A stretch of DNA of 64,000 bases from Alphaproteobacteria bacterium (GCA_965243315.1 CBDEUP010000007.1:1752221-1816220), one strand, 5' to 3'. Positions 6,178-51,743 are shown, counted from the stretch's first letter. The notes: a model not told the origin generated them from the letters alone. Translations and numbers: made by a program.

Positions 6178-6266
6178 CCGCGCCATCCGCAATGTGACAA
6201 CCGCCCCGGTGCGCCCCGCGAATACCTTCGCACGGCGCGCCGGGGCTCTTTCTTTGTCGGCGATCG

Positions 6267-7187: not shown

Positions 7188-7191
7188 GGCG

Positions 7192-8067: not shown

Positions 8068-8078
8068 GCGCCGAGCGC

Positions 8079-9611
8079 TCACTCCCGGCGCAACACGTCG
8101 AAGGCGATGCTGATACGCTCCTCGTCGCCTTTGAACGGAAGCGTGCGATGAAACGTATAAGAGGGAAACAGGAGCATCAGCCCTTCCCCGGGCTTGACAA
8201 GCCTGGTCTCGGGCTCCGCTCGGATCTGGAAGTCCCAATAGGGCCGCCCGAACTCGATCCACCCGGCATGGGCAGCACCGTCCTCGTCGACGGCCCTGGG
8301 CAGACGCACATAGTAGACCCCGCTCAGCCAAGCCGATGGATGGATATGGGGAACCTGATATGCGCCCGCATCGAGGATCACCCCCCACGCCGTGGTTCTG
8401 GTTTGGCGCGGAACATCGGCCACAAACGGATGATCAGAGCCGCGCGGCAGCGCCTCTCGATAGTCGTCCACAGCGCGTTCGATCATCTTCTGAAATGTCG
8501 CGATCGCGGGCCCGCGGCCAGGGAACAACTCTCCCGTGCTCTTGCCCCGCTCCATCGAGTAACTCTCAGGCGCCTCCTGCAAGGTCGGATGGCCGCGGAT
8601 ATGGGCAGACAAGGCCTCATTGAACGCGGTCATGTCCGCAAAACCGGCGGGCGGCGAGCAACGCATGCGCCGAATCAAGTCATCGAAGCCGAGCAGCTCT
8701 CGCGCCGCGGTGTGCTCCCCCAGCTCCCATAGGGCGACCGCCTTCATGGCAAGCGCACCGCTTTGGCCCGGACGGCGGGCCAAAAACGCATCGCAGGCCT
8801 CAAGCGCAGCGCGCGGATCCTTCCGATCGAAATGCGCGTGGACGTGGCGCGGCTTGCCCACCTCGAACGAGGCATCAAGAACGTCGACCTTGAGCGCCGC
8901 CGCCCGCTGATAGGCTCTCAGTGCGTTGTTGAGACTGCCGCTCGCGTAAAGCGCGTTCCCGAGGGCGAAATGCGCCTCCGCATTTTCGGGATCGATCGCG
9001 ATTGCCCGGTGAAACGCGCGCTCGGCCCCGTCGAGGTCTCCCTTCGCGTGGTCGACCAGGCCGATCTGAAGCATGGTACCGGCATGATCGGGGCGAAGCT
9101 CGGCGGCGCGATCGAAGGCCGTGGCGGCGCCATCCAGATCACCCTTCCTGCGCAGCGCGTGACCGAGGTTGAAATGCGTCTCCGCTTTGGCCGGATCGAT
9201 CCCGATCGCGCGGCGATATGCGGCGATCGCCCCGTCGATATGACCAGCCACCTGGAGTGCGTTGCCAAGATCGTTGTGTGCGCCCGAATCGCGATCGTCG
9301 AGCGCGACGGCGCGCCGCAACAGCGCGACCGCCTGTCCGGGCTCATCGAGTTGGAGCGAGACCACGGCGCAGGCCTTCAACGCATCCCTGTGATCGGGGC
9401 GTGCGGCGAGAACCTCGCGATAGAGCGCCTGCGAATCGGCAAGCCGCCCGGTTCGCCGATAGAGGGCGGCCCGGCGCAACGCTTCACGGATGCGGGTCGC
9501 CGACATCGTCGCCCGACAACCGCCGACGCTGGTGCCTTGCCGCGCCGCTCCCGGTGCGTCAGTGGGCCGAGAACCCTTCCCTCGCGAACGTCTGCTCTGG
9601 TTCGGCGCCAT
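8079..9611 (-). CDS. TPR-repeat protein fused to a putative 2OG-Fe(II) oxygenase (TIGR02466-like) C-terminal domain
   Basis: Multiple TPR repeats (ALxxDPxxAEAHxNLGxAL) are followed by a C-terminal SAWLSGVYYVRLP...FPSYTFHRTLP region resembling the PhyH-like 2OG-oxygenase family. Confidence 0.7.
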   Translation of the reverse strand: MAPNQSRRSRGKGSRPTDAPGAARQGTSVGGCRATMSATRIREALRRAALYRRTGRLADSQALYREVLAARPDHRDALKACAVVSLQLDEPGQAVALLRRAVALDDRDSGAHNDLGNALQVAGHIDGAIAAYRRAIGIDPAKAETHFNLGHALRRKGDLDGAATAFDRAAELRPDHAGTMLQIGLVDHAKGDLDGAERAFHRAIAIDPENAEAHFALGNALYASGSLNNALRAYQRAAALKVDVLDASFEVGKPRHVHAHFDRKDPRAALEACDAFLARRPGQSGALAMKAVALWELGEHTAARELLGFDDLIRRMRCSPPAGFADMTAFNEALSAHIRGHPTLQEAPESYSMERGKSTGELFPGRGPAIATFQKMIERAVDDYREALPRGSDHPFVADVPRQTRTTAWGVILDAGAYQVPHIHPSAWLSGVYYVRLPRAVDEDGAAHAGWIEFGRPYWDFQIRAEPETRLVKPGEGLMLLFPSYTFHRTLPFKGDEERISIAFDVLRRE

Positions 9612-18081: not shown

Positions 18082-19344
18082 ATGTCGACGGTCGCCGATA
18101 GCACCCTGCGAACCGCCGATGGCGTGCCATTGAAGACGAGCCTGCGGCGGGCGATGGCCCGCAGGCGCATTCGCACATTCTTGTTGGTTGTCCCCATTCT
18201 GGTGTTTTTGTTGATCACGTTTGTTTTTCCCGTCATCGACATGTTGTTTAGAAGCGTCGACAACCAAATCGTTTCATCTGTTCTGCCTCGTACAACGCTG
18301 GCCATTCAAAGCTGGGATCCGGGGAGCGAGGAGCTGCCACCGGAATTCGTGTACGAAGCTCTGGTGCTGGATATTCAAGAGTCGTTCAAGGACAAGACGC
18401 TGGGCCGTGCCGGACGTCGCTTGAATTACGAAAAGTCCGGCGTGATGAGCTTGTTCCGGAAATCGGGACGACGAGCCAAACGCATCACCGAGGCCCCCTT
18501 CAAGGACCAAGTCATAGCAATTGACCAACGCTGGGCAGACTTGGCGACTTGGCAGCTGATTTATCAGGAATCGAGCAGCGTAACCGAAAGCTACTTCTTG
18601 TCGGCTGTCGACCTTCGGGTTGACTACAAGGGTGAAATATCCTGGAAGGCGGAAGAACGACGAATATACTTGTTCTTATTTTATCGTACGTTGTGGATGA
18701 GTGCGCTCATCACGATATTCTGCTTGCTACTCGGTTATCCGATTGCCTTCCTCCTGGCGACGTTACCACCGCGCCATAGCAATCTCTTGCTCATTCTCGT
18801 CTTGTTGCCATTCTGGACCTCTCTGCTGGTTAGGACGACTGCGTGGATTGCGTTGCTTCAGTCCGAAGGCGTGCTGAACGACCTTATGGTGTTCCTGGGC
18901 ATAATTTCCGAAGACGGTCGTTTGCAGATGATTCACAACAAGATCGGCACCTTCGTGGCGATGACTCACATTCTTTTGCCCTTTATGATTCTGCCCCTCT
19001 ATTCCGTCATGAAGACAATTCCCTCTTCGTATATGCGCGCTGCTCGCTCGCTCGGGGCATCACCGTTCACTGGCTTTATCAAGGTCTATATGCCCAATAC
19101 CGTACCTGGTATCGGCGCCGGCTGCATTCTGGTATTCATTCTTTCGATCGGTTATTACATCACGCCGGCGCTGGTCGGAGGACGAACCGGCACGTTCATC
19201 TCGAACATCATCGCCCTTCACATTAGCGAGACGTTAAACTGGGGTCTGGCGGCTGCGCTGGGCGTGATTTTGTTGGCGCTCGTCCTGTTGCTCTATTTCC
19301 TCTATGACAGGATCGTCGGCGTCGCCAACATGAAGCTCGGATAG
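18082..19344 (+). CDS. ABC transporter permease (PotB-like with N-terminal extension), low-GC
   Basis: Polytopic membrane protein with the permease signature. GC is about 50%. Confidence 0.85.
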   Translation: MSTVADSTLRTADGVPLKTSLRRAMARRRIRTFLLVVPILVFLLITFVFPVIDMLFRSVDNQIVSSVLPRTTLAIQSWDPGSEELPPEFVYEALVLDIQESFKDKTLGRAGRRLNYEKSGVMSLFRKSGRRAKRITEAPFKDQVIAIDQRWADLATWQLIYQESSSVTESYFLSAVDLRVDYKGEISWKAEERRIYLFLFYRTLWMSALITIFCLLLGYPIAFLLATLPPRHSNLLLILVLLPFWTSLLVRTTAWIALLQSEGVLNDLMVFLGIISEDGRLQMIHNKIGTFVAMTHILLPFMILPLYSVMKTIPSSYMRAARSLGASPFTGFIKVYMPNTVPGIGAGCILVFILSIGYYITPALVGGRTGTFISNIIALHISETLNWGLAAALGVILLALVLLLYFLYDRIVGVANMKLG

Positions 19345-19349
19345 CGCGC

Positions 19350-20198
19350 ATGCCGCCGCCGCTGCACGCCACGCACTCAGAACGGGTCTGGTATTACACG
19401 TTCCGAACGCTGTGCGTGCTGATTTTTATTTTCTTGGTCGGTCCTATTTTCGTCATTATTCCACTCAGCTTTAACGAACTTCCCTACTTTACCTTCACGC
19501 CCGAGATGCTTGCCTTCGACCCGGCAGGCTACAGCACGAAGTGGTATCAGGAATTCTTCACCGAGGACTCTTGGCAAAGGGCAGTACAGAACAGCTTCCT
19601 CATCGCGGTATTCGCCACGCTCATTTCGACATTCCTCGGCACCCTGGCGGCGCTCGGGCTCAGCAGGCCCGAAATGCCCTTCAGGAAGACGATTATGGCG
19701 CTGTTGATTTCGCCGATGATCGTTCCGCTTATAATTTCGGCCGCCGGTATGTATTTCTTTTATGCAAGGATCGGACTCGCCTCGACGCATGTCGGCGTCA
19801 TTCTTGCCCATGCGGCGTTGGGCATCCCCTTCGTAATCATCACGGTGACGGCGACGTTGGTGGGCTTCGACCACTCGCTCACCCGCGCGGCCGCAAGCCT
19901 GGGGTCGAGCCCGACGCGGACCTTCTTCGTTGTGATCGTGCCCCTGATCTTGCCCGGCGTCATATCGGGCGCGCTGCTAGCGTTCATCACCTCCTTCGAC
20001 GAGGTGGTGGTCGTGCTGTTCGTGGGCTCGGTGGAGCAGCGAACGATTCCCTGGAAGATGTTCTCAGGGATTCGCGAGGAGATCCGTCCGACCATCCTCG
20101 CCGTCGCGACGCTCCTGGTGGTCGTGTCGATCATTTTGTTGACGATGGTGGAGCTCCTGCGGCGGCGGAGCGAGCGGCTACGCGGGATTCGCTCTTAA
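19350..20198 (+). CDS. ABC transporter permease (PotC-like), low-GC
   Basis: Membrane protein with EAAxSLG-type permease motif AASLGSSPTRTF. Confidence 0.85.
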   Translation: MPPPLHATHSERVWYYTFRTLCVLIFIFLVGPIFVIIPLSFNELPYFTFTPEMLAFDPAGYSTKWYQEFFTEDSWQRAVQNSFLIAVFATLISTFLGTLAALGLSRPEMPFRKTIMALLISPMIVPLIISAAGMYFFYARIGLASTHVGVILAHAALGIPFVIITVTATLVGFDHSLTRAAASLGSSPTRTFFVVIVPLILPGVISGALLAFITSFDEVVVVLFVGSVEQRTIPWKMFSGIREEIRPTILAVATLLVVVSIILLTMVELLRRRSERLRGIRS

Positions 20199-25332: not shown

Positions 25333-26682
25333 ATGCGGGCTAGGATCGTGCCCGACGAGTCCGCAAGGGAGGCGACGGTGGATATCGCGGCGCTGCGCGC
25401 GGCTGGCGCGCGTCATCTGATCCAGGGCGAGCTGCTCTCGGACGTGGTTCCGGCCGCCGACGGGCCCGTCTTCGTCCGTGCCGACGGCGCGGAGATCTTC
25501 GATTCCGAGGGCCAGGCCTACCTCGATTTCAACTCGGGCCAGATGTGCTCGGCGATCGGCCACAACAACCCGCGCGTGACCCAGGCGGTGCGCGAGGGCC
25601 TGGGCACGCTCACCCATGCGAGCTCGGTCTATTTCAACGAGCCGCAGCTGCGGCTTGCCGCACGGCTTGCGGAGACCTTCGATGCGCCGCTCAGCCGCTC
25701 GCTCTTCATCCAGTCCGGCGCCGATTCCAACGAGGCAGCGGTGCTCTTCGCCCGGCGCGCGACCGGGCGCAGCGGCATCGGCGCGCTGCACTTGGCCTTC
25801 CACGGCTACACCGACGTGACCCGCGCCATCAGCTTCGCCGCGACCACCGCCGGCACCGGACCCTCAATCCCGGACGTGCACGCGATCCCGGCGCCCTACG
25901 CCTACCGCTCGCCGGTGGGGGCTGACGGCGACGAGTGGTGGGCGCCGCTGCTCGCCATCGCCTTCGACCTGCTCGACCGCGAATGCCCCAACAATCTGGC
26001 GGCCGTCATCGCCGAGCCCCTGATCAGCGCGGGCGGGGTGATCGAGATGCCGCCCGGCTACCTCAAGGCGCTCAAGGCGGGGCTGGAGGCGCGCGGCGCG
26101 CTGCTCATTCTGGACGAGGCGCAGACCGGGCTTGGAAAGCTCGGCACCCTCTACGCCTACCAGCAGCACGGCGTGGTGCCGGACATCATGACGCTGTCGA
26201 AGCACTTCGGCGGGGGGCTCCCCATCAGCGCCATGGTGACGACGGACGCGATCGCCGAGCGCGCGCTCGAGGGCGGGCTCACCTTCGGCCATTCGCATTC
26301 GTCCGATCCCATCGCCTGCACGGCGGGACTCGCCAGCCTGGACGAAATACTGATCGAGGACCTGCCCGCCAAGGCCCGCGCGGTCGGCACGTACTGGCGC
26401 CAGCGCATGGAGGGCCTGCAGCAGCGCTTTCCCATGATCGGCGACGTGCGCGGCAAGGGCTGCCTACAAGGGGTCGAGCTGGTCCGCGACCGCTCCACCA
26501 AAGAGCCCGCGAGCGAAGAGGCGAAGGAAATCTTCCGCGAAAGCCTGGGCGAGGGGCTGCTGTTCTCGGTGCGCGGCCAGCACCGCAACGTGCTCCGCTT
26601 CGTGCCGCCCTTCTGCACCAGCGAAGCGCAGATCGACCGCGCCGCCGCGATCCTGGAGCGCGCGCTGGCGCGTCACGGCTGA
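25333..26682 (+). CDS. Class-III (omega) aminotransferase, PLP-dependent
   Basis: About 450 aa, with LILDEAQTGLGKLG containing the PLP-lysine region and features of the aspartate-aminotransferase fold type I, class III family. Possibly taurine/beta-alanine--pyruvate type, by context only. Confidence 0.8.
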   Translation: MRARIVPDESAREATVDIAALRAAGARHLIQGELLSDVVPAADGPVFVRADGAEIFDSEGQAYLDFNSGQMCSAIGHNNPRVTQAVREGLGTLTHASSVYFNEPQLRLAARLAETFDAPLSRSLFIQSGADSNEAAVLFARRATGRSGIGALHLAFHGYTDVTRAISFAATTAGTGPSIPDVHAIPAPYAYRSPVGADGDEWWAPLLAIAFDLLDRECPNNLAAVIAEPLISAGGVIEMPPGYLKALKAGLEARGALLILDEAQTGLGKLGTLYAYQQHGVVPDIMTLSKHFGGGLPISAMVTTDAIAERALEGGLTFGHSHSSDPIACTAGLASLDEILIEDLPAKARAVGTYWRQRMEGLQQRFPMIGDVRGKGCLQGVELVRDRSTKEPASEEAKEIFRESLGEGLLFSVRGQHRNVLRFVPPFCTSEAQIDRAAAILERALARHG

Positions 26683-26736: not shown

Positions 26737-27939
26737 ATGAGCAGGCCCACCACAGGCGTGCTCGCGCTCGTCCTCTGCGCGGCCCTGGTGCTCACGATCA
26801 GCAACGGGCTTCGCAGCAGTTTCGGCCTCTTCCTCACGCCGATGAGCCTCGACATCGGGATCTCGCGCGAGACGTTTGCGCTGGCCATCGCGATCCAGGG
26901 TCTCGTATGGGGGATCAGCCAGCCCATCTTCGGTGCGCTCGCTGACCGCCACGGGGCGGTGCGCGTCGTCCTGCTCGGGACCGTGATCTACGTCGCAGGC
27001 CTGCTGTGGATGGCCTGGGCCGACGGCGCTCTCGGGCTTCACCTGAGCCAGGGTGTGCTCGTCGCCCTCGGCATCAGCGCCACCGGGTTCGCGGTGGTGT
27101 TGGGGCCGGTGGGGCGTGCCGTGCCACCGGAGCGGCGCAGCATGGCGCTCGGCATCGCGGCAGCCGGCGGCTCCTTCGGACAGTTCGCGCTGGCGCCTGT
27201 CGGCGGCGCCTTGATCGACGGTGTCGGCTGGTCGATGGCGCTGATTGCTTACTGCGGGATCGCGGCCATGATGATCCCGTGTCTCCTCGGCATGCGCGGC
27301 AGCCACAGGCCGCCCGAGGGCAGCGCCCAAACGCTGAGCGAAGCGCTTGCCGAGGCCCGCGCTCACAGCGGCTTCTGGCTACTCTGCGGCGGCTTCTTCG
27401 TCTGCGGCTTCCATGTCTACTTCATCGCGACACACCTGCCGCCCTTCATCACCGACGCGGGGCTTGCGCCGATGCTGGGGGCGACGGCGATTGCCGTGAT
27501 CGGGCTCGGCAACATCGTCGGCACCTTCGCCGCCGGCTGGCTCGGCGATCGACACCGCAAGAAGTACGTGCTCTCGTTCTTCTACCTCGGCCGGGCGGCG
27601 GTCCTCGGCATCTTCCTCGTGGCGCCGGTGACCGAGGCAAGCGTGCTGGTGTTCTCCGCACTGATGGGCCTGCTCTGGCTCGGGACGGTGCCGCTCACCA
27701 GCGGTCTCGTCGCCCAAATCTTCGGGCCGCGCTACCTTGGCGCGCTCTTCGGCCTCGTCTTCTTCAGCCACCAGCTCGGCTCCTTTCTCGGCGCTTGGCT
27801 CGGCGGCTATCTGTACGACACGACCGGCTCCTACGACATGGTGTGGCTAACCGCGGTGGCGCTCGGTGTAGCGGCGGCGGTGCTGCACTGGCCGATCCGC
27901 GACCGGCCGCTCGTGCGCCAGGAGGCAGGCGCGGGCTAA
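26737..27939 (+). CDS. MFS transporter
   Basis: 12-TM hydrophobic profile of about 400 aa. Confidence 0.8.
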   Translation: MSRPTTGVLALVLCAALVLTISNGLRSSFGLFLTPMSLDIGISRETFALAIAIQGLVWGISQPIFGALADRHGAVRVVLLGTVIYVAGLLWMAWADGALGLHLSQGVLVALGISATGFAVVLGPVGRAVPPERRSMALGIAAAGGSFGQFALAPVGGALIDGVGWSMALIAYCGIAAMMIPCLLGMRGSHRPPEGSAQTLSEALAEARAHSGFWLLCGGFFVCGFHVYFIATHLPPFITDAGLAPMLGATAIAVIGLGNIVGTFAAGWLGDRHRKKYVLSFFYLGRAAVLGIFLVAPVTEASVLVFSALMGLLWLGTVPLTSGLVAQIFGPRYLGALFGLVFFSHQLGSFLGAWLGGYLYDTTGSYDMVWLTAVALGVAAAVLHWPIRDRPLVRQEAGAG

Positions 27940-28603: not shown

Positions 28604-30046
28604 CTACCGCCGTAATGCCCGGCCCGGCCGATTGCCGGTGGCCTCGCCCCCCTCACGCACGATGGCGCCGTTCACCATGACGATGTCGATGCCGGCGGCG
28701 GGCCGCGTCGGCGCCTCGAAGGTCGCCTCATCGGCGATGGTCTCGGCATCGAACATCACGAGATCGGCATAGGCGCCGGCGCGCACCTCGCCGCGATCGG
28801 TGAGGCCGAACTGGGCGGCGGTGAGCCCGGTCATGCGGCGCACCGCATCCTCCAGGGTGAGCAGGCCGAGCTCGCGCGAATAGTGGCCGAGCACGCGCGG
28901 GAAGGTGCCCCACAGCCTGGGGTGCGGGTGGCGGTCGTGGGGCAGGCCGTCGGAGCCGATCATGCTGTGTTCGAAGGCGATGATGCGGCGCACGTCCGCC
29001 TCGTCCATCATGAAGTAGATGCCGCCCGCCGGTTGCAGCTTCGGCACGGCGGCCACTGGACCGAGGCCGAGCGCGGCGGCCACGTCTTCGAGGTCCTGGC
29101 CCGCATACTCCGGATGCGGCTCGGACCAGGTGACGATCACGCGTTCCGCCTTCTCCACCATCTCCGCCAGCAGCACCGTGGAGCCTGCGGTGTAGGGGTA
29201 GACGTCGAGGCCGACCGCCTGGGTCTCGCGCGTCTTCTCGATCAGCGCGAGCGTGTCGCGACTTCGCCCGAAGTTCTGCCGGCCTGCGCACTTGTGGTGG
29301 GAGATGACGACGCCGGCGCCGGCCTGGCGGCCGATCTCGAAGGCCTCCTCCATCGCCTCCTCGACGCCGTCGTGCTCGTTGCGCATGTGGGTGACGTAAA
29401 GGCCGCCGGCGGCGCCCGCGACCTCCGCCACCGCCGCGACCTCGTCGGTGGTCGCCGCCTTGTTGGGGCCGTAGATGAGCCCGGTGCTAAAGCCGAGCGC
29501 CCCGGCCTCCATGCCCTCGGCCAGCCGCTCGCGCATGGCGTCGATCTCGCCCGACGTGGCCGGGCGATCGACATCGTCCATGGTGTCGAGGCGGAGCGCC
29601 GAATGGCCGACCAGCAGGCCCGCATTGGCGGCCGGCGGGTTCTCGTCCAGCGCCGCGACGTAGTCGGCGAAGCGGGGGTAGCGGAAGTCGGCGGGCGGGC
29701 CGAGCAGGTCGAGCGGCGGCGGTATGGGCCGGCCGGGCTTGAGCGGCGCGAGGCTCACCCCGCAATTGCCGGCGATCACCGTGGTGACGCCCTGGCTGGT
29801 CTTGGGGGTCACGTCCGGGTCCACCAGCAGCAGGTTGTCGTCGTGGGTGTGGGCGTCGATGAAGCCCGGCGAGACGATGCGCCCGGTCGCGTCGATGGTT
29901 CGCGCGGCCTCAGCGCCTGCCAGATCGCCGACGGCGGCGATGCGGTCTCCGGCGACCGCGACATCGGCCCGCTGGCGCGGCACACCCGTGCCGTCGATCA
30001 CCGTGCCGCCCGTGAAGAGGACGTCGTATCGCCCTTCCGCCGCCAT
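28604..30046 (-). CDS. N-acyl-D-amino-acid deacylase (D-aminoacylase) family amidohydrolase
   Basis: MAAEGRYDVLFTGGTVIDGTG...SPGFIDAHTHDD is the D-aminoacylase N-terminal signature. Confidence 0.85.
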   Translation of the reverse strand: MAAEGRYDVLFTGGTVIDGTGVPRQRADVAVAGDRIAAVGDLAGAEAARTIDATGRIVSPGFIDAHTHDDNLLLVDPDVTPKTSQGVTTVIAGNCGVSLAPLKPGRPIPPPLDLLGPPADFRYPRFADYVAALDENPPAANAGLLVGHSALRLDTMDDVDRPATSGEIDAMRERLAEGMEAGALGFSTGLIYGPNKAATTDEVAAVAEVAGAAGGLYVTHMRNEHDGVEEAMEEAFEIGRQAGAGVVISHHKCAGRQNFGRSRDTLALIEKTRETQAVGLDVYPYTAGSTVLLAEMVEKAERVIVTWSEPHPEYAGQDLEDVAAALGLGPVAAVPKLQPAGGIYFMMDEADVRRIIAFEHSMIGSDGLPHDRHPHPRLWGTFPRVLGHYSRELGLLTLEDAVRRMTGLTAAQFGLTDRGEVRAGAYADLVMFDAETIADEATFEAPTRPAAGIDIVMVNGAIVREGGEATGNRPGRALRR

Positions 30047-30284
30047 CGTCGCCTCCCGCTTTTGCCTGCGTCTGCCGGTGGGACCATGACGGCGGCGGCG
30101 GGCCGTGACAACAGGCTTTGGTCTCTGTGGGGGCGGCTAGTATGGTGCCGCTCGATGAAGGAAGAGCTGCGCCCAATCCCCAGCGATGCTGACGAGAGAG
30201 AACCCGCTCCCGCCAAGGGTCTGGGGACGGCGCTGCATGCGCTCTTCAGACCTCTTGGAGGCGTAGAGCTCGATCTTCCGCCAC

Positions 30285-31031
30285 GTGAGCCGATGCGTGA
30301 GCCGCCTCGGTTCGACTGACGCGCGCATGAGCGACAGCGATAGGAATATGGAGGGCGGCGCGGGTGCCGATCTTGCGGCGCTGCAGTTCGGCGACAGCTT
30401 CTTCCCGAGCGGGGCTGTGTCGTTCTCGCTTGGGCTGGAGACGCTCCACGCCGACGGCATCGTGGCTGACGCCGCCGGCCTCGACGAGTTCCTTACCGAC
30501 CAGGCGATGGACCGCTGGGCCACGGCCGAGCGTGCCTTCTTCGCCGCCGCCCACGAAGCCTGCCCGGACTGGCCGGCGGTTGCCGAGATCGACGCCCTGC
30601 AGGAGGCGATGACGCTGCCGCGCGAGCTGCGCGAGGGCTCGCGCAAGGGCGGCGCCGCGCTGCTCGGCGTTCATGCGCGCATGGAGACGCCGGGTGCCCA
30701 GGACTACCGGGAGCGGCTGCGGGCCGGTTCCGCGCACGGCCATCTCGCCGTGGTGCAAGGCGTGGTGCTCAAGGGTGCGGACCTCGACCTCGCCCGTGCC
30801 GAGGCGGTGAGCCTGCACGGGCACTGCACGATGATCCTGGGTGCCGCGCTCAGGCTCGGCTTGATCGGCCACCTCGACGGGCAGATCATACTGCGCGGAC
30901 TCAGGCCCCGGATGGCGGCGCTCTTGGCGGAGCCGGCGCCCGGCCTCGATGAGGCCCGCTCCTACGCGCCGCTCGCCGATGTCGCCGCCGCCCGCCACGA
31001 GGAAGCGGCGGTTCGACTCTTCAGCAACTGA
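30285..31031 (+). CDS. ureF: Urease accessory protein UreF
   Basis: LQFGDSFFPSGAVSFSLGLE matches the UreF N-terminal motif. Start could be 30327 or 30345 instead. Confidence 0.7.
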   Translation: MSRCVSRLGSTDARMSDSDRNMEGGAGADLAALQFGDSFFPSGAVSFSLGLETLHADGIVADAAGLDEFLTDQAMDRWATAERAFFAAAHEACPDWPAVAEIDALQEAMTLPRELREGSRKGGAALLGVHARMETPGAQDYRERLRAGSAHGHLAVVQGVVLKGADLDLARAEAVSLHGHCTMILGAALRLGLIGHLDGQIILRGLRPRMAALLAEPAPGLDEARSYAPLADVAAARHEEAAVRLFSN

Positions 31032-31046
31032 CCAGGGTGGCCCACG

Positions 31047-31742
31047 ATGCTGTTGACACCGACCGAGATGGAGCGGCTGACGATCTACACCGCCGCCGAG
31101 CTCGCGCGAAAGCGCCGAGCGCGCGGGCGCGCCCTCAACCACCCCGAGGCCGTGGCGCTGATCAGTGACGAGATTCTCGAAGGCGCGCGCGACGGACGCT
31201 CGGTGGCGGAGCTGATCGAGCACGGTGCCACCATCCTTACTACCGACGATGTCATGCCCGGCGTCGCCGAGATGATGCCGGTGCTGCAGGTAGAGGGCAC
31301 CTTCCCCGACGGCACCAAGCTGGTCACGGTCCATGATCCCATCCGCCCCGGCGAGAAGGCGCAAGATGTCAGTGTCAGACCGGGCGAGATCATTCCGGCC
31401 GACGGCGATATCGAAATCAACGCGGGCCGGCCCACCGCCACGGTCGCCGTCACCAACACCGGCGACCGGCCGGTGCAGATCGGCAGCCACTATCACTTCT
31501 TCGAGGTGAACCGTCATCTCGACTTCGACCGCACCACCTCCTTCGGGATGCGCCTCGACATCCCGGCCGGCACGGCAGTGCGCTTCGCGCCGGGCGAGAC
31601 CAAGGAGGTGACGCTCGTCGAGTTCGGCGGCAGCGGCGAGATGGTGGGACTCAACGACCTAACCCAGGGCTCGCGGCGCTCCGAGAGCGTCAAGCAGGAG
31701 GCGCTGGCCCGTGCCCGCGCCCGCGGCTTCAAGGGGGCTTGA
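31047..31742 (+). CDS. ureAB: Urease gamma-beta fused subunit (UreA+UreB fusion)
   Basis: [43 protein letters not shown] is gamma-subunit sequence. It is followed by beta-subunit sequence [31 protein letters not shown] in a single 231-aa protein. Confidence 0.9.
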
Positions 31743-31745
31743 GCG

Positions 31746-33458
31746 ATGGCACGGATGAGCAGGGCGGAGTACGCGGCGCTCTACGGGCCCACGACCGGCG
31801 ACTGCGTGCGCTTGGGCGACAGCGAGCTCTTGGCCGAGATCGAGCACGACCACGGCGTGCCGGGGGAGGAGTGCCTGCACGGCGGCGGCAAGACGCTGCG
31901 TGACGGCATCGGCCTCGTCGCCGGGCTCGACAGCGCCGGCGGCTCGCTCGACTTTCTGATCTCCAACGCGGTCGTCATCGATCCCGTCCTGGGTATCGTC
32001 AAAGGCGATATCGGCATCAAGGAGGGCCTCATCGCCGGCGTCGGCAAGGCCGGCAATCCGGCGGTGATGGACGGGGTGGACCCCGCGCTGCTCTGCGGTG
32101 CCGCGACCACGGTGCGCGATGCGGAAGGGTTGATTGCGACGCCCGGTGGCATCGATGTCCACGTCCATTTCGACAGCGCGCAACTCTGCGAGCACGCGAT
32201 CTCAAGCGGGGTCACGACGATGCTGGGCGGCTCGCTCGGGCCGATCACCGTCGGCATCGACTGCGGCGGCGCCTGGAACGTCGGCAAGATGCTGCAGGCG
32301 GCCGAATCCTGGCCGATCAATTTCGGTTTCCTCGGTCGCGGCAACTCAGCCAAGCCGCTCTCGCTGGTGGACCAGATCGCGGGCGGCTGCATGGGGCTCA
32401 AGATCCACGAGGACTGGGGCGCCATGCCGGCGGCGATCGATACCTGCCTCGACGTTGCCGATGAGATGGACTTTCAGGTCCAGCTCCACACCGACACGCT
32501 GAACGAGAGCGGCTTCCTGGAGGAGACGCTGGCCGCCATCAGGGGTCGCACGATCCACATGTACCACGCGGAAGGCGCCGGGGGCGGACACGCACCCGAC
32601 ATCATTCGCATCACCGGCGAGCCTAACTGCCTGCCGTCGTCCACCAACCCCACCAATCCCTACACGCGCAACACCTTCGACGAACACCTCGACATGATCA
32701 TGGTCTGCCACCACCTGAACCCGGCGGTGCCTGAGGACGTGGCCTTCGCCGAGAGCAGAATTCGCGCGCAAACCATCGCCGCCGAGGACGTGCTGCACGA
32801 CATCGGCGCGATCTCGATGCTGGGTTCGGACAGCCAGGGGATGGGGCGGATCAACGAGGTCATCTGCCGCACCTGGCAACTTGCCTCCAAGATGCGGCGC
32901 CAGCGCGGGCGGCTCGCGTCGGAGCAGACCGCCAAGGGCGACAACGAGCGGATCAAGCGCTACATCGCGAAGTACACCATTAACGCGGCCCGCACCTTCG
33001 GCATCGACCGGCACATCGGTTCGCTGGAGGCGGGCAAGCTCGCGGACGTGGTGCTCTGGCGCCCGGCCTTCTTCGGCATCAAGCCCGAGCTGGTCATCAA
33101 GGGGGGCTTCATCGTGTGGTCGGCAATGGGCGACAGCGCCGCCTCGCTGATGACCTGCGAGCCGCTGCTCATGCGCCCGCAATGGGGCGCCTTCGGCCGG
33201 GCCAAGGAAGCGCTGAGCCTGAGCTTCGTCTCGCAGGCGGCGGCCGACGCGGATATCGCGGGAAGGCTCGGATTGGAGAGCCGCACCGTGCCTGTGCAGG
33301 GCACGCGCAAGCTCGCCAAGGGCCACATGCTGCATAACGGCGCGTGCCCCGAGGTGACGGTCGATCCCGAGACCTTCGAGGTGCGCGTCGACGGCGAGCT
33401 CGCGACCTGCGAGCCGGCCGACGAGCTGCCGCTCGCTCAGCGCTACATGCTGCGCTAG
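31746..33458 (+). CDS. ureC: Urease alpha subunit
   Basis: Near-collinear identity to known UreC, including the HxH site (GGIDVHVHF), carbamyl-Lys region [36 protein letters not shown] and GSDSQGMGR. Confidence 0.95.
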
Positions 33459-33497
33459 GCGCGAGAGGGGGCAGGAGGCACGCGCAGGAGCCGGAGG

Positions 33498-34724
33498 ATG
33501 GAGCAGATCCTGCGCGGCGCGCTCGTCGTCGGCGGTGACGAAACCCGGCTCGACATCGGCATCGCCGACGGGCGCATTGCCGAAATCGCACCCACGATCG
33601 AGGCCGACGCGCCCGTGCTCGACCTGGGCGGCCGCCTCGTGGCGCCCGGCTTCATCGAGACCCATATCCACCTCGACAAGGCCTGCATCCTTGACCGCTG
33701 CCGCGCGGAGCGGGGCGACCTCGCCGAGGCCATCGACGAGGTGGCGCGGGTCAAGCGAGAATTCACCGCCGACGACGTGAACGCCCGCGCCCGGCGCGTG
33801 CTCGATGCCTGCATCGCCCAGGGCACCACCCACATGCGCACGCACCTGGAGGTCGACCCCGGCATCGGGATGCGGGGCTTCGAGGGCGTGCTGCCGCTGA
33901 TCGAGGCCTATCGCTGGGCCATTGACCTCGAAATCTGCGTCTTCCCGCAGGAGGGGCTGCTCAACAATCCGGGCACCGACGAGCTGATGGTGGAGGCGCT
34001 GGAGCGGGGTGCCTCTGTGGTCGGCGCCGCGCCCTATACGGACAGAGACCCGGCCGGCCAGATCGACCGCGTGTTCGATCTCGCGCGCACGTTCGACGTC
34101 GATATCGACATGCATCTAGACTTCGGCGAGAGTGCGGACGAACTTGATCTCGACCAGGTCTGCGGGCTGACCGAGCGCTTCGGATACGGCGGACGGGTCA
34201 CGGTGGGCCACGTCACCAAGCTCTCGGCCGCGACGCCTGAGCATCTGGCGCAGGTCGCGGACCGCATGGCAGAAGCGGGCGTCGCCTGCACCGTGCTGCC
34301 CGCAACCGACCTCTTCCTCATGGGACGGGGCGACGAAGCCAACGTGCGGCGCGGTGTCACGCCTGTGCACCGGTTGCTCGGCCGCGGCGTCAACTGCTCG
34401 CTCTCGTCGAACAACGTGCTCAACCCATTCACGCCCTTCGGTGATTGCTCGCTGGTCCGCATGGCGAACCTCTACGCCAATATCTGCCAGGTGGGCGCAC
34501 GATCTGAGATGCTGGACTGCTTCGACATGATCACGCGGCGCTCAGCCCGCATTCTCGGTCTCGACGACTACGGCATCGCGGTCGGCAAGACGGCTGATCT
34601 CGTGGTGCTCGACGCAACCGATCCGGCCGACGCGGTGGCCGCGATTGCGCCACCGCTCTACGGCTTCAAGCGCGGGCGCATGACCTTCCGGCGCCCGCCG
34701 GCGGAGCTTTTCGAGCCGTCGTAG
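33498..34724 (+). CDS. Cytosine-deaminase-like amidohydrolase
   Basis: FIETHIHLDKA metal-binding HxH motif, about 408 aa, with CodA/AtzC-family features. Confidence 0.7.
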   Translation: MEQILRGALVVGGDETRLDIGIADGRIAEIAPTIEADAPVLDLGGRLVAPGFIETHIHLDKACILDRCRAERGDLAEAIDEVARVKREFTADDVNARARRVLDACIAQGTTHMRTHLEVDPGIGMRGFEGVLPLIEAYRWAIDLEICVFPQEGLLNNPGTDELMVEALERGASVVGAAPYTDRDPAGQIDRVFDLARTFDVDIDMHLDFGESADELDLDQVCGLTERFGYGGRVTVGHVTKLSAATPEHLAQVADRMAEAGVACTVLPATDLFLMGRGDEANVRRGVTPVHRLLGRGVNCSLSSNNVLNPFTPFGDCSLVRMANLYANICQVGARSEMLDCFDMITRRSARILGLDDYGIAVGKTADLVVLDATDPADAVAAIAPPLYGFKRGRMTFRRPPAELFEPS

Positions 34725-40021: not shown

Positions 40022-40186
40022 TCAGTGAGAGTCTCGCGCTCCGCCGTCGATCTCGCCGGGGCCGTCATCGGTGCCCTCGCGTCGGCGCGCATCGAAGAGC
40101 AGCGTCTTCGCCGACCAGAAGATCCCGATCGACAGGATGAGGGTGGCGAGCGCAACCAGCAGCGGCAGTCCGAGGTCCCAGGGCAT
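40022..40186 (-). CDS. Small (54-aa) single-TM membrane protein, hypothetical
   Basis: Minus-strand ORF MPWDLGLPLLVALATLILSIGIFWSAKTLLFDARRREGTDDGPGEIDGGARDSH. It is below the ORF-track length cutoff and is supported by composition only. Confidence 0.25.
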   Translation of the reverse strand: MPWDLGLPLLVALATLILSIGIFWSAKTLLFDARRREGTDDGPGEIDGGARDSH

Positions 40187-40333
40187 GGGTTATGTAGCCC
40201 CCAAGTGACGATCCTGCTTGGCTGAATAGCCAAGCGCCCCGGCTGCGTCAAGGCCGGGACATCCGCTTGACAGGCGGGCCAGTGCCGCCGCATGATCCGG
40301 CCCCCTTCGGCCGGGGCGACCGGCCGCCGCAAT

Positions 40334-40409
<76 letters not shown>

Positions 40410-45330: not shown

Positions 45331-45750
45331 GGCTGTACCTCTCTTGCCAGGTTCGCGCTGTGCTACCAGCGGGATACTTTACTCAATGGCGAATGAATCT
45401 TGCGTGTCAATACTCACGACAATAGCGCTCTTTTTGTAGACAGCGCGTTGGCTTCGTCGCCTGGCTGCCGAGGCTGCGGCGCGGGCCCAGGAATTGCGGT
45501 CCGGCTTCCAATCTGCGCAGCGGTAGTGCTGGCGGCCCAACGGCGGTGTAACGAGCTTGCCATAATATTTATGGAAAAGGCACCGTCACGATCAATGTAA
45601 ATACACACAATTTACTTCTATTGCCGTAAGAATCTAGCAATGAGTCTTGCGTTTCCAGGTGACCTCGGCCCTGGCCCGTCGGGTCAGCACTGTGACGTCA
45701 CGGTGGCAGGAGGCGGCCCTTCCTGGCTCCGGCGAAAGGGAGAAGACGGG

Positions 45751-46590
45751 ATGAGGATGGCACTCTCGATCGCGGTGCTGGCAGCTGCGGTCGCGCTCGC
45801 GTCCTGCACTCGGACGCTCGATCCTCCGACGCCCGAGGAACAGGCGCGGGAGAGCCACGGGGCGATCGTCGGCGCGGCGAACACGCTGCTGATGGGCGAC
45901 CGGCTGGCCTGGTTCGCGACGGAGGGCGACGTGGAGCGGGCGAACACGACCTGTCGGGACGACACCTGCGCGGTCGGATACCTGGCCTTGAGCAGGACGA
46001 CTCGGTTCGGCCTCGAGGGCTGGGAGCTGACGTTGCTTCGCGAGCGCCGCGGCGTGGGCCTGTTTCGACAGGAACTCGCGGCAACCCACCGCGACTATGA
46101 GGCCTATGGTGGTTGGCTCGAGCACAGCCTGTTCGCCACGCGGCTGACCCGGTTCGGCGAGGAGGCGGGCCCCAGCGCGGGGGCGTCGGTGGTGTTCGGC
46201 TATTCGCTCGGGCTCTCGAGCGGGGAGAACCCCGGCGCCGAAGGCTCGGCCCGCTGGGAAGGGCTGATGCTCGGCCGCGACGTCAGCGCCTCACGCAGCC
46301 GCGGCCAGGCGATCCGGGGCGACGCCGACGTGACGGTCGAGTTCGGAGCCGACGCGATCACGGCGGATGTCGCGTTCACCGGCATCGTCAACATCGAGAC
46401 GGGCGCTGCGCGGAACGACATGGCGTGGCGCGGCCTGGAGGTGGAGGACGGCGGCTTCGCCCGGCGGAGCGCTCCCGGCGACACCGTTTCGGGCCGGTTC
46501 TACGGCCCCGATGAGGAGGAGGTCGGCGGGGTCTTCGAACGCGACGGCATCGCCGGCGCCTTCGGCGGGCGGCGCACCTCCGCGCCGTGA
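45751..46590 (+). CDS. Surface lipoprotein with TbpB-like C-lobe beta-barrel domain
   Basis: Start MRMALSIAVLAAAVALASC has a lipobox, and RBS gggagaag lies upstream. C-terminus GRFYGPDEEEVGGVFERDGIAGAFGGRR matches the TbpB/fHbp beta-barrel C-terminal signature (G.FYG...E.GG.F....GAFGG). Confidence 0.65.
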   Translation: MRMALSIAVLAAAVALASCTRTLDPPTPEEQARESHGAIVGAANTLLMGDRLAWFATEGDVERANTTCRDDTCAVGYLALSRTTRFGLEGWELTLLRERRGVGLFRQELAATHRDYEAYGGWLEHSLFATRLTRFGEEAGPSAGASVVFGYSLGLSSGENPGAEGSARWEGLMLGRDVSASRSRGQAIRGDADVTVEFGADAITADVAFTGIVNIETGAARNDMAWRGLEVEDGGFARRSAPGDTVSGRFYGPDEEEVGGVFERDGIAGAFGGRRTSAP

Positions 46591-46646
46591 CCCGCTGCGT
46601 CCCGTTCTGATCGCCGCCGGCGCCGCAACATCCTAGGGAGGGTCCG

Positions 46647-47498
46647 ATGAGAGTAGGATTCCCGAGTGCGTTGGCGGCAGCAGCGCTGGCGCTGGCGGCC
46701 TGCACCGGCTCGCCCGAGCCGCCACCGCCGCCGACGGCGGACGAGTTGGCGCGGTCCGCCTATGCACGGATCGTGAGCGGCTCGAATACGTACCTGATGG
46801 GCGACCATCTCGGCTGGTTCGGAACCGACGACGCGGTCGAACGGGTGGGCGTCAGGTGCCTGGACGACACCTGCGTGTCCGCCGTCCAACGGGCATTCCG
46901 GTCGACCACCGCGTTGAGCGTCGAAGGCAACGAGCTGGATCTGCTCGGCGAACGCCGCGGCGTGAGCCTGGTCGTGGAGGAAGCATCGGGCGATTACGCG
47001 GACGCCCACGTCTATGGCGGTTGGCTCGATCACAGCCTGTTCGCCACGGAAACCGCCCTTCTCACGCACGAAATCTTCCCGGACCGGGGCGCGACGGTGG
47101 CGCTGAACTATTCGGTCGGCTTCTCGACGGGGGAGAATCCCCGCGCAGTCGACGGCTTGGCCCGCTGGGAGGGACTGATGCTCGGCCGCGACATGCGCGC
47201 GACGCCCGGCCGTGCCCAGGTCATCTGGGGCGACGCCGACGTGACGATCGAATTCGGGGCGGATGCCGTGACGGCCGACGTCGCGTTTACCGACATCGCC
47301 AATGTCGATACCGGCGAGGCGTGGGGCGACATGGCGTGGCGCGGCATGGCGGTGGAGAACGGCGGCTTCGCCCGCAGGAACGCCCCCGACGACACGATCT
47401 CGGGCCGGTTCTACGGCCCCAACGAGGAGGAAGTCGGCGGCATATTCGAGCGCGACGGCATGGCGGGTGCGTTCGGCGGAAAGCGCGCCTTCCCATAG
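46647..47498 (+). CDS. Paralogous TbpB-like beta-barrel surface lipoprotein
   Basis: MRVGFPSALAAAALALAAC has a lipobox. The protein is collinear with the upstream paralog and ends GRFYGPNEEEVGGIFERDGMAGAFGGKR. Confidence 0.65.
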   Translation: MRVGFPSALAAAALALAACTGSPEPPPPPTADELARSAYARIVSGSNTYLMGDHLGWFGTDDAVERVGVRCLDDTCVSAVQRAFRSTTALSVEGNELDLLGERRGVSLVVEEASGDYADAHVYGGWLDHSLFATETALLTHEIFPDRGATVALNYSVGFSTGENPRAVDGLARWEGLMLGRDMRATPGRAQVIWGDADVTIEFGADAVTADVAFTDIANVDTGEAWGDMAWRGMAVENGGFARRNAPDDTISGRFYGPNEEEVGGIFERDGMAGAFGGKRAFP

Positions 47499-49829: not shown

Positions 49830-50486
49830 ATGCTGACATTCGTTGAAGAGACTTGCCTCTTGCTTCTGGATGAGAAAGGCAGCGAGTTCCTGCCCATACA
49901 CCCCAACATAGTAGAATGCGCCCTGGCCGGGGCCGTGCTTGTGGATCTGGCGTTCGCCTATCGGATTGACACCGATCCTAAGACCCTGGCCGTCATGGAC
50001 CGTACGCCGATCGGCGAGGCCATGCTCGATCGTATCCTGGCCAAGATCGGCGAGCACACGGAAACTACCGATACCGCCACTTGGATAAAGACGTTGTCCG
50101 CCGACGAATCGGCAGCCATTCAACAACAGGCACTCGACCGACTCGTGGAGCGGGGCATTCTAGAGCGGCAGGATAAGAAATCTCTCTTGGGTTTCCGCAA
50201 ACGCCGCTATCTCACCCTCGACGGCGAGGCGGCACGCGAGATCAAGGACCGTATAAGGACGCTCATTCTCTCGGATGACATACCCGATCCTCGGGATATC
50301 GCGCTGCTTTCTTTGTTAGATTCCTGTGGAATTCTTCCCGAAATTTACCCCGACGTCGAGTTCAAGAGCGCCGGCGTGCGAATAAGACAGCTCCGCAACA
50401 TGGATCTTGTTGGCCGCGACGTGTTCAACGCCGTTACCGACATCGAACGCGCAATCGTCACAGCACGTGCACACGGAGCCCACTAA
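49830..50486 (+). CDS. GPP34/GOLPH3-family protein
   Basis: CLLLLDEKGSEF...ALAGAVLVDLA...LVERGIL...SLLGFRKRRY fit the bacterial GPP34 family profile. GC is lower, about 55%. Confidence 0.65.
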   Translation: MLTFVEETCLLLLDEKGSEFLPIHPNIVECALAGAVLVDLAFAYRIDTDPKTLAVMDRTPIGEAMLDRILAKIGEHTETTDTATWIKTLSADESAAIQQQALDRLVERGILERQDKKSLLGFRKRRYLTLDGEAAREIKDRIRTLILSDDIPDPRDIALLSLLDSCGILPEIYPDVEFKSAGVRIRQLRNMDLVGRDVFNAVTDIERAIVTARAHGAH

Positions 50487-50546
50487 GACGTATGAAGAAC
50501 GCGACATCACGAGCGTTTTCACGAATCGCAAAAAACGAGTTGAGCA

Positions 50547-51743
50547 ATGACAGAAGAGCCAAACGCTGAAACACTAGAATTGCGTTCGACTCCCTACAAG
50601 ATTCTCGTCGTAGACGACGAACCTGACTTGGAACGTCTCGTTCTGCAGCAGATGCGCCGGGAGATTCGTCGCCAGCAGTATGAGTTTGTCTTCGCGCACA
50701 ATGGTATCGAAGCTCTTGAACGGCTCAGCCAGGATCCGGGCATCGATTTGGTGGTCTCGGACATCAACATGCCCAAGATGGACGGTCTTGCACTCCTTGA
50801 AGAGATTTCTGAAGTCAATGCGGACGTGCGTTCCGTGATCGTGTCAGCGTACGGCGATATGAAGAACATTCGCACTGCGATGAACCGGGGCGCTTTCGAT
50901 TTCGTGACCAAGCCCATCGACTTCGCAGACCTGAAGGTCACGATCGAACGAACATTGCGCAATCTGATTTCGTGGAGAGAGGCGACAGAATCGCGCGAAA
51001 AGCTTCTAGCAATACAAAATGAACTCGATGTAGCCAGCAAAATGCAACAGTCGATCCTTCCGACCGTTTTCCCCGCAGATTCTCGGTATCAGGTGTTCGG
51101 TAGCATGTCACCCGCTCGGGAAGTAGGCGGGGATTTTTTCGACATTATGAAATTGGAAGAGGGACGTATTGGTATTGCGGTCGCGGATGTGTCCGGCAAG
51201 GGCGTTCCCGCCGCCCTCTTCATGATGTCTTGCCGCACTCTTCTCAAAGGTGCAGCCATCGGCACCGCTCACCCTGGCGCGGTGCTGAAGGAGGTCAACC
51301 AAGTTCTTCAGGAAGACAACGAAGCGATGATGTTCGTCACGCTGTTCTACGCAATTTTCGACCCGCAGAGCGGGGAAATGGTGTATGCAAACGGGGGTCA
51401 CAATCCGCCAGTTATTGTTAAAGCCGATGGAAGCTCCAGCGAGATTCCCGTGACGAGTGGGATTGCGCTCGGCGTGATGCCTGACATGGACTTTGTGGAA
51501 GACGCGCTACATGTCGCGCCGGGGGAATCAGTCGTATTCTACACCGATGGCGTCACGGAAGCCGAGAATGCTACGGCAGAGTTGTTCGATATGGAGCGGC
51601 TGCGGATGGTCTTTACCGGAGTGCCCCCGAAAGACGCGAAAGAAGCCAACAAGGCGGTTTTCGAGGCGGTGAGCGCGTTTGCAGGCGACACGCCGCAATC
51701 CGACGACATCACTTGCATAACGCTCTATCGCTGCGAGTCATGA
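50547..51743 (+). CDS. Response regulator with PP2C (SpoIIE/RsbU-like) phosphatase output domain
   Basis: N-terminal REC domain (ILVVDDEPD...VVSDINMPKMDG...VTKP). C-terminal PP2C domain (GGDFFD, VADVSGKGVPAALFMM, YANGGHNPP, FYTDGVTEA). GC is about 52%. Confidence 0.85.
   Translation: MTEEPNAETLELRSTPYKILVVDDEPDLERLVLQQMRREIRRQQYEFVFAHNGIEALERLSQDPGIDLVVSDINMPKMDGLALLEEISEVNADVRSVIVSAYGDMKNIRTAMNRGAFDFVTKPIDFADLKVTIERTLRNLISWREATESREKLLAIQNELDVASKMQQSILPTVFPADSRYQVFGSMSPAREVGGDFFDIMKLEEGRIGIAVADVSGKGVPAALFMMSCRTLLKGAAIGTAHPGAVLKEVNQVLQEDNEAMMFVTLFYAIFDPQSGEMVYANGGHNPPVIVKADGSSSEIPVTSGIALGVMPDMDFVEDALHVAPGESVVFYTDGVTEAENATAELFDMERLRMVFTGVPPKDAKEANKAVFEAVSAFAGDTPQSDDITCITLYRCES

Follow-up and report, generated by a model that had tools for sequence, protein, structure and literature searches.

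A urease cluster with ureF as its only linked accessory gene in uncultured Alphaproteobacteria

We analysed the urease genes carried by a stretch of 64,000 nucleotides (64 kilobases (kb); hereafter the window) from a genome labelled Alphaproteobacteria bacterium (GCA_965243315.1 CBDEUP010000007.1:1752221-1816220). The cluster consists of ureF, a fused ureAB gene, ureC and amh2, the last encoding a CodA/AtzC-like amidohydrolase; ureF is the sole urease accessory gene of the window. Judged by its sequence, this cluster is stable and functional; it is a shortened version of a fused-subunit urease cluster that is already known and common, and on the present evidence it does not form a system of a new category. 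Most probably, it relies on accessory proteins from another part of the genome. Two features are new: firstly, the 'ureF-only' state is clade-wide and, secondly, ureG-ureD are replaced, in a conserved manner, by an atypical CodA-like protein. Urease maturation is a textbook case of chaperone-mediated nickel insertion. Here, ureF is the one accessory gene that stays beside the structural genes throughout a clade, where purifying selection acts on it, and in a sister clade the structural genes stand without any accessory gene nearby. This makes the genomes with such minimal clusters a natural test of which accessory proteins work in trans, which are dispensable and whether UreF has a role of its own. 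The comparison also exposes an abundant CodA-like family that is devoid of the canonical catalytic Glu and Asp and is consistently linked to ureases or amidases. If the accessory genes simply lie elsewhere in the genome, the cluster would be no more than a neat case of a fragmented operon.

Structural genes and missing accessory genes

The genes ureF (30327-31031), ureAB (31047-31742), ureC (31746-33458) and amh2 (33498-34724) all lie on the plus strand and are separated by 15, 3 and 39 nucleotides, respectively, indicating that they form a single operon, of which amh2 is the last gene. The gene of a D-aminoacylase homologue (N-acyl-D-amino-acid deacylase; 28604-30046, minus strand) is divergent to this operon. 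These five genes had been named in a preliminary description of the locus, and all of them were found where it had placed them. Gene calls between 25 and 40 kb were made from a listing of open reading frames (ORFs) combined with the G+C content by codon position, which gave one real gene per stretch.

The small subunit UreAB is encoded by one uninterrupted ORF of 231 amino acids, in which the Pfam domain Urease_gamma covers residues 1-99 and Urease_beta residues 112-208. It matches the NCBIfam model 'bifunctional urease subunit gamma/beta' (NF009671) from end to end (residues 1-230 of 231; 366 bits for a cutoff of 243), which confirms the single gamma-beta fusion proposed earlier. The catalytic alpha subunit, UreC, scores 813 bits against TIGR01792 (equivalog cutoff 680) and aligns over its full length with UreC of K. 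aerogenes (E = 1.4e-209). From this alignment we established that UreC retains the Ni ligands (four His and one Asp), the carbamylated Lys, the catalytic His, the flap Cys-His and the Arg, so that its earlier description as catalytically complete stands; in the numbering of the window protein, the active-site residues are H139, H141, K219, H221, D223, H248, H274, C321, H322, R338 and D362. These 11 catalytic and flap positions are invariant in 61 of 61 UreC sequences, taken from complete, ureF-only and ureF-less clusters alike, save for one Cys-to-Ala replacement at the column of C321. The locus is predicted to encode an orthodox two-chain urease with a complete dinickel active site.

The preliminary description had likened the arrangement to that of Helicobacter and considered a fused subunit uncommon for the group. 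UreAB does align with Helicobacter pylori UreA along residues 1-231 (233 bits), and the H. pylori cluster, ureAB-ureIEFGH, likewise specifies a two-chain urease with a fused gamma-beta subunit. In contrast to the window, however, it holds all four accessory genes within the operon, and for UreC of the window, Klebsiella (701 bits) is at least as close a match as Helicobacter (660 bits). Helicobacter mustelae possesses an iron urease, UreA2B2, which has a fused small subunit, like the window, and is not known to have dedicated accessory genes. This enzyme (PDB 3QGA) was among the matches, with both subunits scoring lower than those of Ni ureases (UreC 656 bits, UreAB 205 bits), and thus shows no special similarity to the window's urease. 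As for rarity, the fusion is the rule in a large, mostly alphaproteobacterial family, and NCBIfam holds a curated model for it. It is universal among the clusters ordered ureE-ureF-ureAB-ureC-ureG-ureD and is hence no oddity of the window.

Searches of the 64-kb window by tblastn with the UreD, UreE and UreG proteins of related clusters revealed none of the three genes (best E value 0.084). Pfam scans of 50 further ORFs of the window found no ureD, ureE or ureG either; only ordinary chromosomal genes were identified (for example MetH, ABC transporters, RNase HII, MreB, P450). No remnant of ureE was found in the 280 base pairs (bp) 5' of ureF. The absence of ureD, ureE and ureG, initially noted for the 5 kb around the cluster, thus holds for the whole window and, as described below, for the surroundings of the cluster in 16 relatives.

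Relatives, truncation and selection

The window was compared with a set of 118 related loci, and a protein search with UreF returned 596 relatives. Sixteen species-level metagenome-assembled genomes (MAGs) encode a UreF that is 74-93% identical to that of the window; their labels read either 'Alphaproteobacteria bacterium' or 'Rhodospirillales bacterium', and sponge bins are the source of several of them. All 16 show the D-aminoacylase gene on the minus strand followed by ureF-ureAB-ureC, and then amh2 wherever the contig extends beyond ureC. UreC is 93-99% identical among these species. Most of the MAGs also have the same aminotransferase-MFS and HpnL-GST-PanBC flanks, indicating that the arrangement was inherited vertically. 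Altogether, about 20 related species, all of them uncultured Alphaproteobacteria, have this arrangement, and the ureF-only state has been passed on stably within their clade. Horizontal acquisition of the cluster, which the preliminary description had raised, was rejected: its G+C content (68-70%) is the same as that of its surroundings, and synteny is conserved across species at a synonymous divergence (dS) of 0.3-1.0.

The more distant UreF relatives (42-57% identity) came from public-assembly contigs and from 80 metagenome loci, the fused-subunit family amounting to 345 metagenome matches. Almost all of these relatives are ordered ureE-ureF-ureAB-ureC-ureG-ureD, and in most complete clusters ureE overlaps the start of ureF. 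These environmental clusters have the F-AB-C order and spacing of the window, and their proteins are 50-62% (UreF), 70-77% (UreAB, for most) and 80-87% (UreC, for most) identical to the window's. The window differs from them in three ways: it is without ureE, ureG and ureD, amh2 follows ureC, and a divergent D-aminoacylase gene precedes ureF. The gene right after ureC is ureG in 28 loci, ureD-ureG in 3 and amh2 in 20; amh2 sits where complete clusters have ureG-ureD. When 58 UreC sequences were placed in a neighbour-joining tree, the clusters with amh2 grouped as a single clade inside the complete-cluster family, composed of the window lineage and of two loci with different flanks, L022 and L023. 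This nesting indicates that the window operon is a truncated derivative, which lost ureE upstream and ureG-ureD downstream.

L022 and L023 are the two most divergent ureF-amh2 clusters. Directly 5' of ureF, both encode a membrane protein of ~90 amino acids (L022 143-415; L023 9579-9860), the gene of which overlaps the ureF start in L022. This protein is 67% identical between the two loci, displays the motifs …WPVMR.SL…VVGTILN.INQGD…YCVPFCVST.GS and has neither a Pfam match nor a counterpart in the window.

Truncation has gone further in another group. In L105/106, a pair of contigs from soil or freshwater, and in L110-112, which stem from marine MAGs and Tara contigs, a gene for a 72-73% identical Amh2 lies directly after ureAB-ureC, and no ureF or other accessory gene was found within ±8-10 kb of ureAB-ureC-amh2. 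Among the marine MAGs, GCA_030744265.1 and GCA_030746645.1 carry this ureF-less form. With L023, which retains ureF, these loci have D-aminoacylase and GFO/IDH/MocA genes upstream in common, and they are a sister lineage that has also lost ureF. Clusters of the opposite composition were found as well: L115/116 (5917-8624) hold ureD on the minus strand next to ureE-ureF-ureG, with no structural urease gene within ±8 kb, and the accessory-only loci L058 and L099 hold ureE-F-G-D contiguously. Structural and accessory genes can hence live apart in this urease family. A common origin of L115/116 and the ureF-less L110-112 from the same organism was considered and rejected, given their G+C contents (59% vs 63%) and a tetranucleotide correlation of 0.81. 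The complete-cluster locus L004 and the ureF-less locus L105 come from one sample and differ in G+C content (66.7% vs 61.7%).

All the remaining genes of the cluster are under purifying selection. Ratios of non-synonymous to synonymous substitution rates (dN/dS), computed pairwise by the Nei-Gojobori method over 13-17 species for pairs with dS 0.05-2, are 0.083 for ureC, 0.087 for ureAB, 0.13 for amh2, 0.17 for the D-aminoacylase gene and 0.21 for ureF. The neighbouring genes gave 0.12 (panB), 0.18 (MFS) and 0.18 (GST), and the values of the urease operon are thus similar to those of housekeeping neighbours such as panB. The cluster has lost three of the four accessory genes, and a degraded toxin-antitoxin remnant lies just upstream, as might be expected of a non-functional leftover of a complete urease operon that is heading for loss. 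This view is contradicted by the selection analysis (dN/dS 0.08-0.21 at dS 0.3-1.0, with an invariant active site) and by the absence of frameshifts or stops in more than 20 species, and we find it scarcely tenable. Low dN/dS, the invariant active site and the conservation of UreF together indicate that the cluster is not decaying.

UreF and the source of its partners

UreF matches the Pfam family UreF (PF01730) with E = 4e-30 (105.6 bits for a cutoff of 23.3). Its likely start is the ATG at 30327, which yields a protein of 234 amino acids, as in homologues. It matches the structures 6JC4, 8HC1 and 2WGL over its full length but distantly (residues 29-247), the closest solved UreF being at E = 3e-7. 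All 50 invariant columns of the UreF alignment A1 are retained. In addition, of the 49 columns with a conservation of 95% or more among 74 complete-cluster UreFs, 46 are equally conserved in 22 distinct minimal-cluster UreFs, and the retained columns include the C-terminal P..A..RHE...RLF tail. UreF's C-terminal tail is required for UreG recruitment in H. pylori (PMC3792862). The alignments make the window's UreF look like a working, canonical UreF.

Urease activation normally requires UreD, UreF and UreG: UreD and UreF form a scaffold by which the GTPase UreG is recruited and a tunnel through UreF and UreD to the buried site is opened, and UreE feeds Ni to UreG (PMC10121161). Since UreF is conserved at its partner-binding residues, UreD and UreG are expected to exist and, being unlinked, are most likely encoded elsewhere. 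As the probable, although far from certain, explanation of the locus, we lean towards an ordinary nickel urease whose maturation relies on UreD and UreG from another genomic position. The enzyme would hydrolyse urea for nitrogen assimilation. Activation would follow the standard route, in which a UreD-UreF scaffold would recruit the GTPase UreG and Ni would reach the site of the carbamylated lysine through the UreFD tunnel. Another genomic locus would supply UreD, UreG and perhaps UreE, and the local UreF would be the F component. Streptomyces genomes provide a precedent, as they hold ure(AB)C clusters without accessory genes beside complete clusters (PMC5489568). The unlinked structural-only and accessory-only clusters of the present family speak for this explanation as well. 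As in the window, the Streptomyces clusters pair a fused ureAB with ureC; the accessory genes of Streptomyces lie elsewhere in its genomes (PMC5489568). Unlike the window's cluster, they have no ureF and no linked CodA-like gene, and they belong to a different phylum.

Several observations weigh against partners encoded elsewhere. No ureD, ureE or ureG was found within ±10 kb of the minimal cluster in the 16 related genomes, and when a related UreG was searched against the protein database, none of the best 120 matches (at least ~66% identity) lay on a contig known to bear the minimal cluster. It is also odd that UreF was kept instead of UreD, although UreD is the urease-contacting protein (PMC10121161). 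A second complete operon would bring its own UreF and would make the local copy redundant, despite the purifying selection acting on it. Finally, the sister lineage has lost ureF too, implying that linked accessory genes are dispensable there, which fits either a supply in trans or no chaperones at all.

The latter possibility, a genome without UreD, UreG and UreE, would entail slow spontaneous carbamylation and Ni binding, or the help of general Ni chaperones of the HypA/HypB or CobW type, as reported for Bacillus subtilis ureABC; UreF would then either have a different, non-canonical helper role or be in the course of being lost. We regard this as an unlikely but serious alternative. It would account for the isolation of ureF among accessory genes in the 64 kb of the window and within ±10 kb in the 16 relatives, for the outcome of the UreG search and for the sister lineage, in which ureAB-ureC-amh2 has an intact active site with no accessory gene nearby. 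Conversely, a urease without its chaperones is hard to reconcile with the very strong constraint on UreC (dN/dS 0.08), which suggests an efficiently used enzyme, or with the state of UreF, in which, at a dN/dS of 0.21, 46 of 49 family-conserved residues are retained, those of the UreG-recruiting tail among them. Accessory-only clusters, moreover, occur in the same urease family. We know of no function of UreF outside the UreD-UreF-UreG complex, which also counts against such an enzyme. Bacillus subtilis offers a parallel in its favour: its ureABC operon has, like the window, no ureD, ureE or ureG and, unlike the window, three separate structural genes, no ureF and a very low urease activity (PMC8600894, citing Kim et al. 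2005).

Amh2 and the flanking genes

Amh2 matches Pfam Amidohydro_1 and Amidohydro_3. Its closest solved structure is the E. coli cytosine deaminase CodA (197 bits), followed by AtzC (141 bits). It nevertheless remains under every NCBIfam cutoff, with 235 bits for PRK07572 (cutoff 438), 208 for PRK09230 (483) and 200 for PRK07583 (403), and no AtzC-type NCBIfam model matched above its cutoff. Two independent alignments gave the same picture of its active site. Amh2 retains the HxH motif, the histidines of strands 5 and 6, H206 and H238 (equivalent to CodA His214 and His246), and Q151 (the substrate-binding Gln of CodA). In contrast, CodA Glu217 is replaced by Phe209, and Asp313/Asp314 by Asn305/Asn306; these replacements are nearly invariant across the Amh2 family. 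The loss of Glu217 and Asp313/Asp314, together with the sub-cutoff scores, leaves the label of cytosine deaminase, creatinine deaminase or AtzC unjustified, and the cytosine-deaminase/AtzC-like identity initially given to this protein had to be abandoned. The residues concerned point to an uncharacterised amidohydrolase subgroup without the near-universal strand-8 Asp.

Amh2 lies directly 3' of ureC in the 20 minimal-cluster loci and in the ureF-less L105/106 and L110-112. The linkage is kept across at least four genomic contexts, and ureC and amh2 overlap in L105. This is more than the common ancestry of neighbouring genes would yield. Amh2 might hence be a dedicated partner of the urease, either as a metal- or CO2-handling maturation factor or as the maker of urea or a substituted urea from a nitrogen compound, which would be passed to the urease. 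Its constant position right after ureC in accessory-poor clusters agrees with such a role, as do the four His metal/active-site residues retained by a protein that has lost the catalytic Glu and strand-8 Asp of CodA, and the strong conservation of amh2 (dN/dS 0.13). The family is, however, wider than the ureases. It is abundant among marine and soil Alphaproteobacteria, a search with Amh2 having returned at least 120 clusters that were no less than 68% identical, and orthologues with 68-71% identity and the same Asn-Asn motif adjoin amidase-signature amidases without any urease (L107-109, L113-114), indicating that Amh2 is not a urease-specific factor. The amidases beside these orthologues match generic amidase models only. 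To our knowledge, no amidohydrolase acts as a urease chaperone and no member of the CodA/AtzC subgroup releases urea. The delivery of urea by a deaminase, as put forward in the preliminary description, hence remains speculation. We thus consider a dependence of the urease on Amh2 rather improbable. A stronger version, in which ureAB-ureC-amh2, with or without ureF, would be a distinct urease system where Amh2 replaces UreG/UreD/UreE in active-site assembly or obligatorily channels a urea-type substrate, seems to us very improbable. At most, one may assign Amh2 to the metabolism of a nitrogen compound of the amide or ureido kind.

The surroundings of the relatives may bear on the nature of such compounds. 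The ureF-less L105/106 and L110-112 carry an isochorismatase-family gene and, further downstream, soxB-soxD-soxA-soxG. Genes of the soxBDAG type recur in the flanks of L003-L005 and L113 and downstream of amh2 in L105/L106 and L110-L112, often with an isochorismatase-family hydrolase near them; in L003 and L113, the full set for the N-methylglutamate pathway is nearby (GATase, Glu_synthase, Gln-synt_C, DAO, SoxD, SoxA, SoxG). This hints at a link of the urease/Amh2 loci to methylated-amine, sarcosine or creatinine-type nitrogen metabolism. The isochorismatase-family genes near Amh2 were considered as BiuH or RutB, and both identities were rejected, the scores being far under the two cutoffs. 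With an isochorismatase-family hydrolase and soxBDAG-type genes near the module in relatives, one might envisage a neofunctionalised homologue, in which UreAB-UreC would act not on urea but on N-methylurea, hydantoin or a carbamoyl compound from creatinine/sarcosine metabolism. The sequence of UreC argues otherwise: it is 80-87% identical to complete-cluster UreC, exceeds the equivalog cutoff for the urease alpha subunit and belongs to the set of 61 with identical catalytic and flap residues but for one flap Cys-to-Ala, and we hold a change of substrate to be extremely doubtful.

Ahead of complete clusters one often finds cobW-hypA together with two arginase-family genes and an ABC transporter of the NitT/TauT type (L002 6047-9519, L035, L060, L062, L069, L087, L103). 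We take the cobW-hypA-arginase-arginase set to encode Ni-dependent, urea-releasing hydrolases of the guanidine/metformin type. It is tempting to speculate that the D-aminoacylase and Amh2, with the isochorismatase-family hydrolase, amidase and sarcosine-oxidase-type genes of relatives, make up a nitrogen-scavenging neighbourhood for small organic nitrogen compounds.

The product of the D-aminoacylase gene matches Pfam Amidohydro_3 (E = 2e-40) and aligns with the Alcaligenes D-aminoacylase 1M7J over residues 7-480 (584 bits). It shows the metal/catalytic motifs DAHTH, NCGVS, THMRNE, SHHKC and GSDG (HxH, Cys, His, His, Asp). Against the generic NCBIfam subfamily PRK09061 it scores 193 bits, under the cutoff of 340. 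In the window lineage as well as in L023, L105/106 and L110-112, the gene is a conserved neighbour of ureF or ureAB. The two flanking amidohydrolases noted at the outset are thus present, and their linkage is non-random, as both are found with ureAB-ureC even where the flanks of the lineages otherwise differ.

Between the D-aminoacylase gene and ureF, the 280 bp contain no Rfam family at the gathering threshold (one spurious miRNA match, E = 0.011) and no match to a sigma-70-like promoter; terminator matches were not above chance. A sigma-54-like GG-N10-GC match was dismissed, being located inside an antitoxin remnant and not conserved. This remnant is a conserved ORF of 54 codons (30155-30319, plus strand) 5' of ureF, corresponding to the C-terminal half of a VapB/FitA-type antitoxin (…GLGTALHALFRPLGGVELDLPPREPMREPPRFD). 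At the same site, L009 (9278-10004) carries an intact antitoxin and a PIN toxin, the stop of the toxin gene overlapping the ureF start; other relatives have neither. The ORF looks like a degraded toxin-antitoxin insertion, unrelated to urease function.

Further upstream lie genes for a class-III aminotransferase (25333-26682), an MFS transporter (26737-27939) and, between the latter and the D-aminoacylase gene, a short TPR protein. Genes 3' of amh2 encode, in order, an HpnL-like membrane protein, a GST, a YccV-like protein, PanB, a 17-kDa antigen-like lipoprotein and PanC. At 40058-40409, ARAGORN called a tmRNA overlapping a tRNA-Ala(CGC) (40334-40409); Rfam finds the tRNA-Ala alone, indicating that the tmRNA call is probably false. 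Two stretches of the window have a G+C content of 55-56% against ~66%, and may be more recent acquisitions: one (49830-51743) encodes a GPP34-family protein and a response-regulator/PP2C (SpoIIE) phosphatase, the other (18082-20198) two ABC permeases. Finally, two adjoining genes at 45601-47498 encode products of ~300 amino acids with weak matches to TbpB_B_D, the transferrin-binding-protein-B beta-barrel (E ~1e-6), and are candidates for surface lipoproteins.

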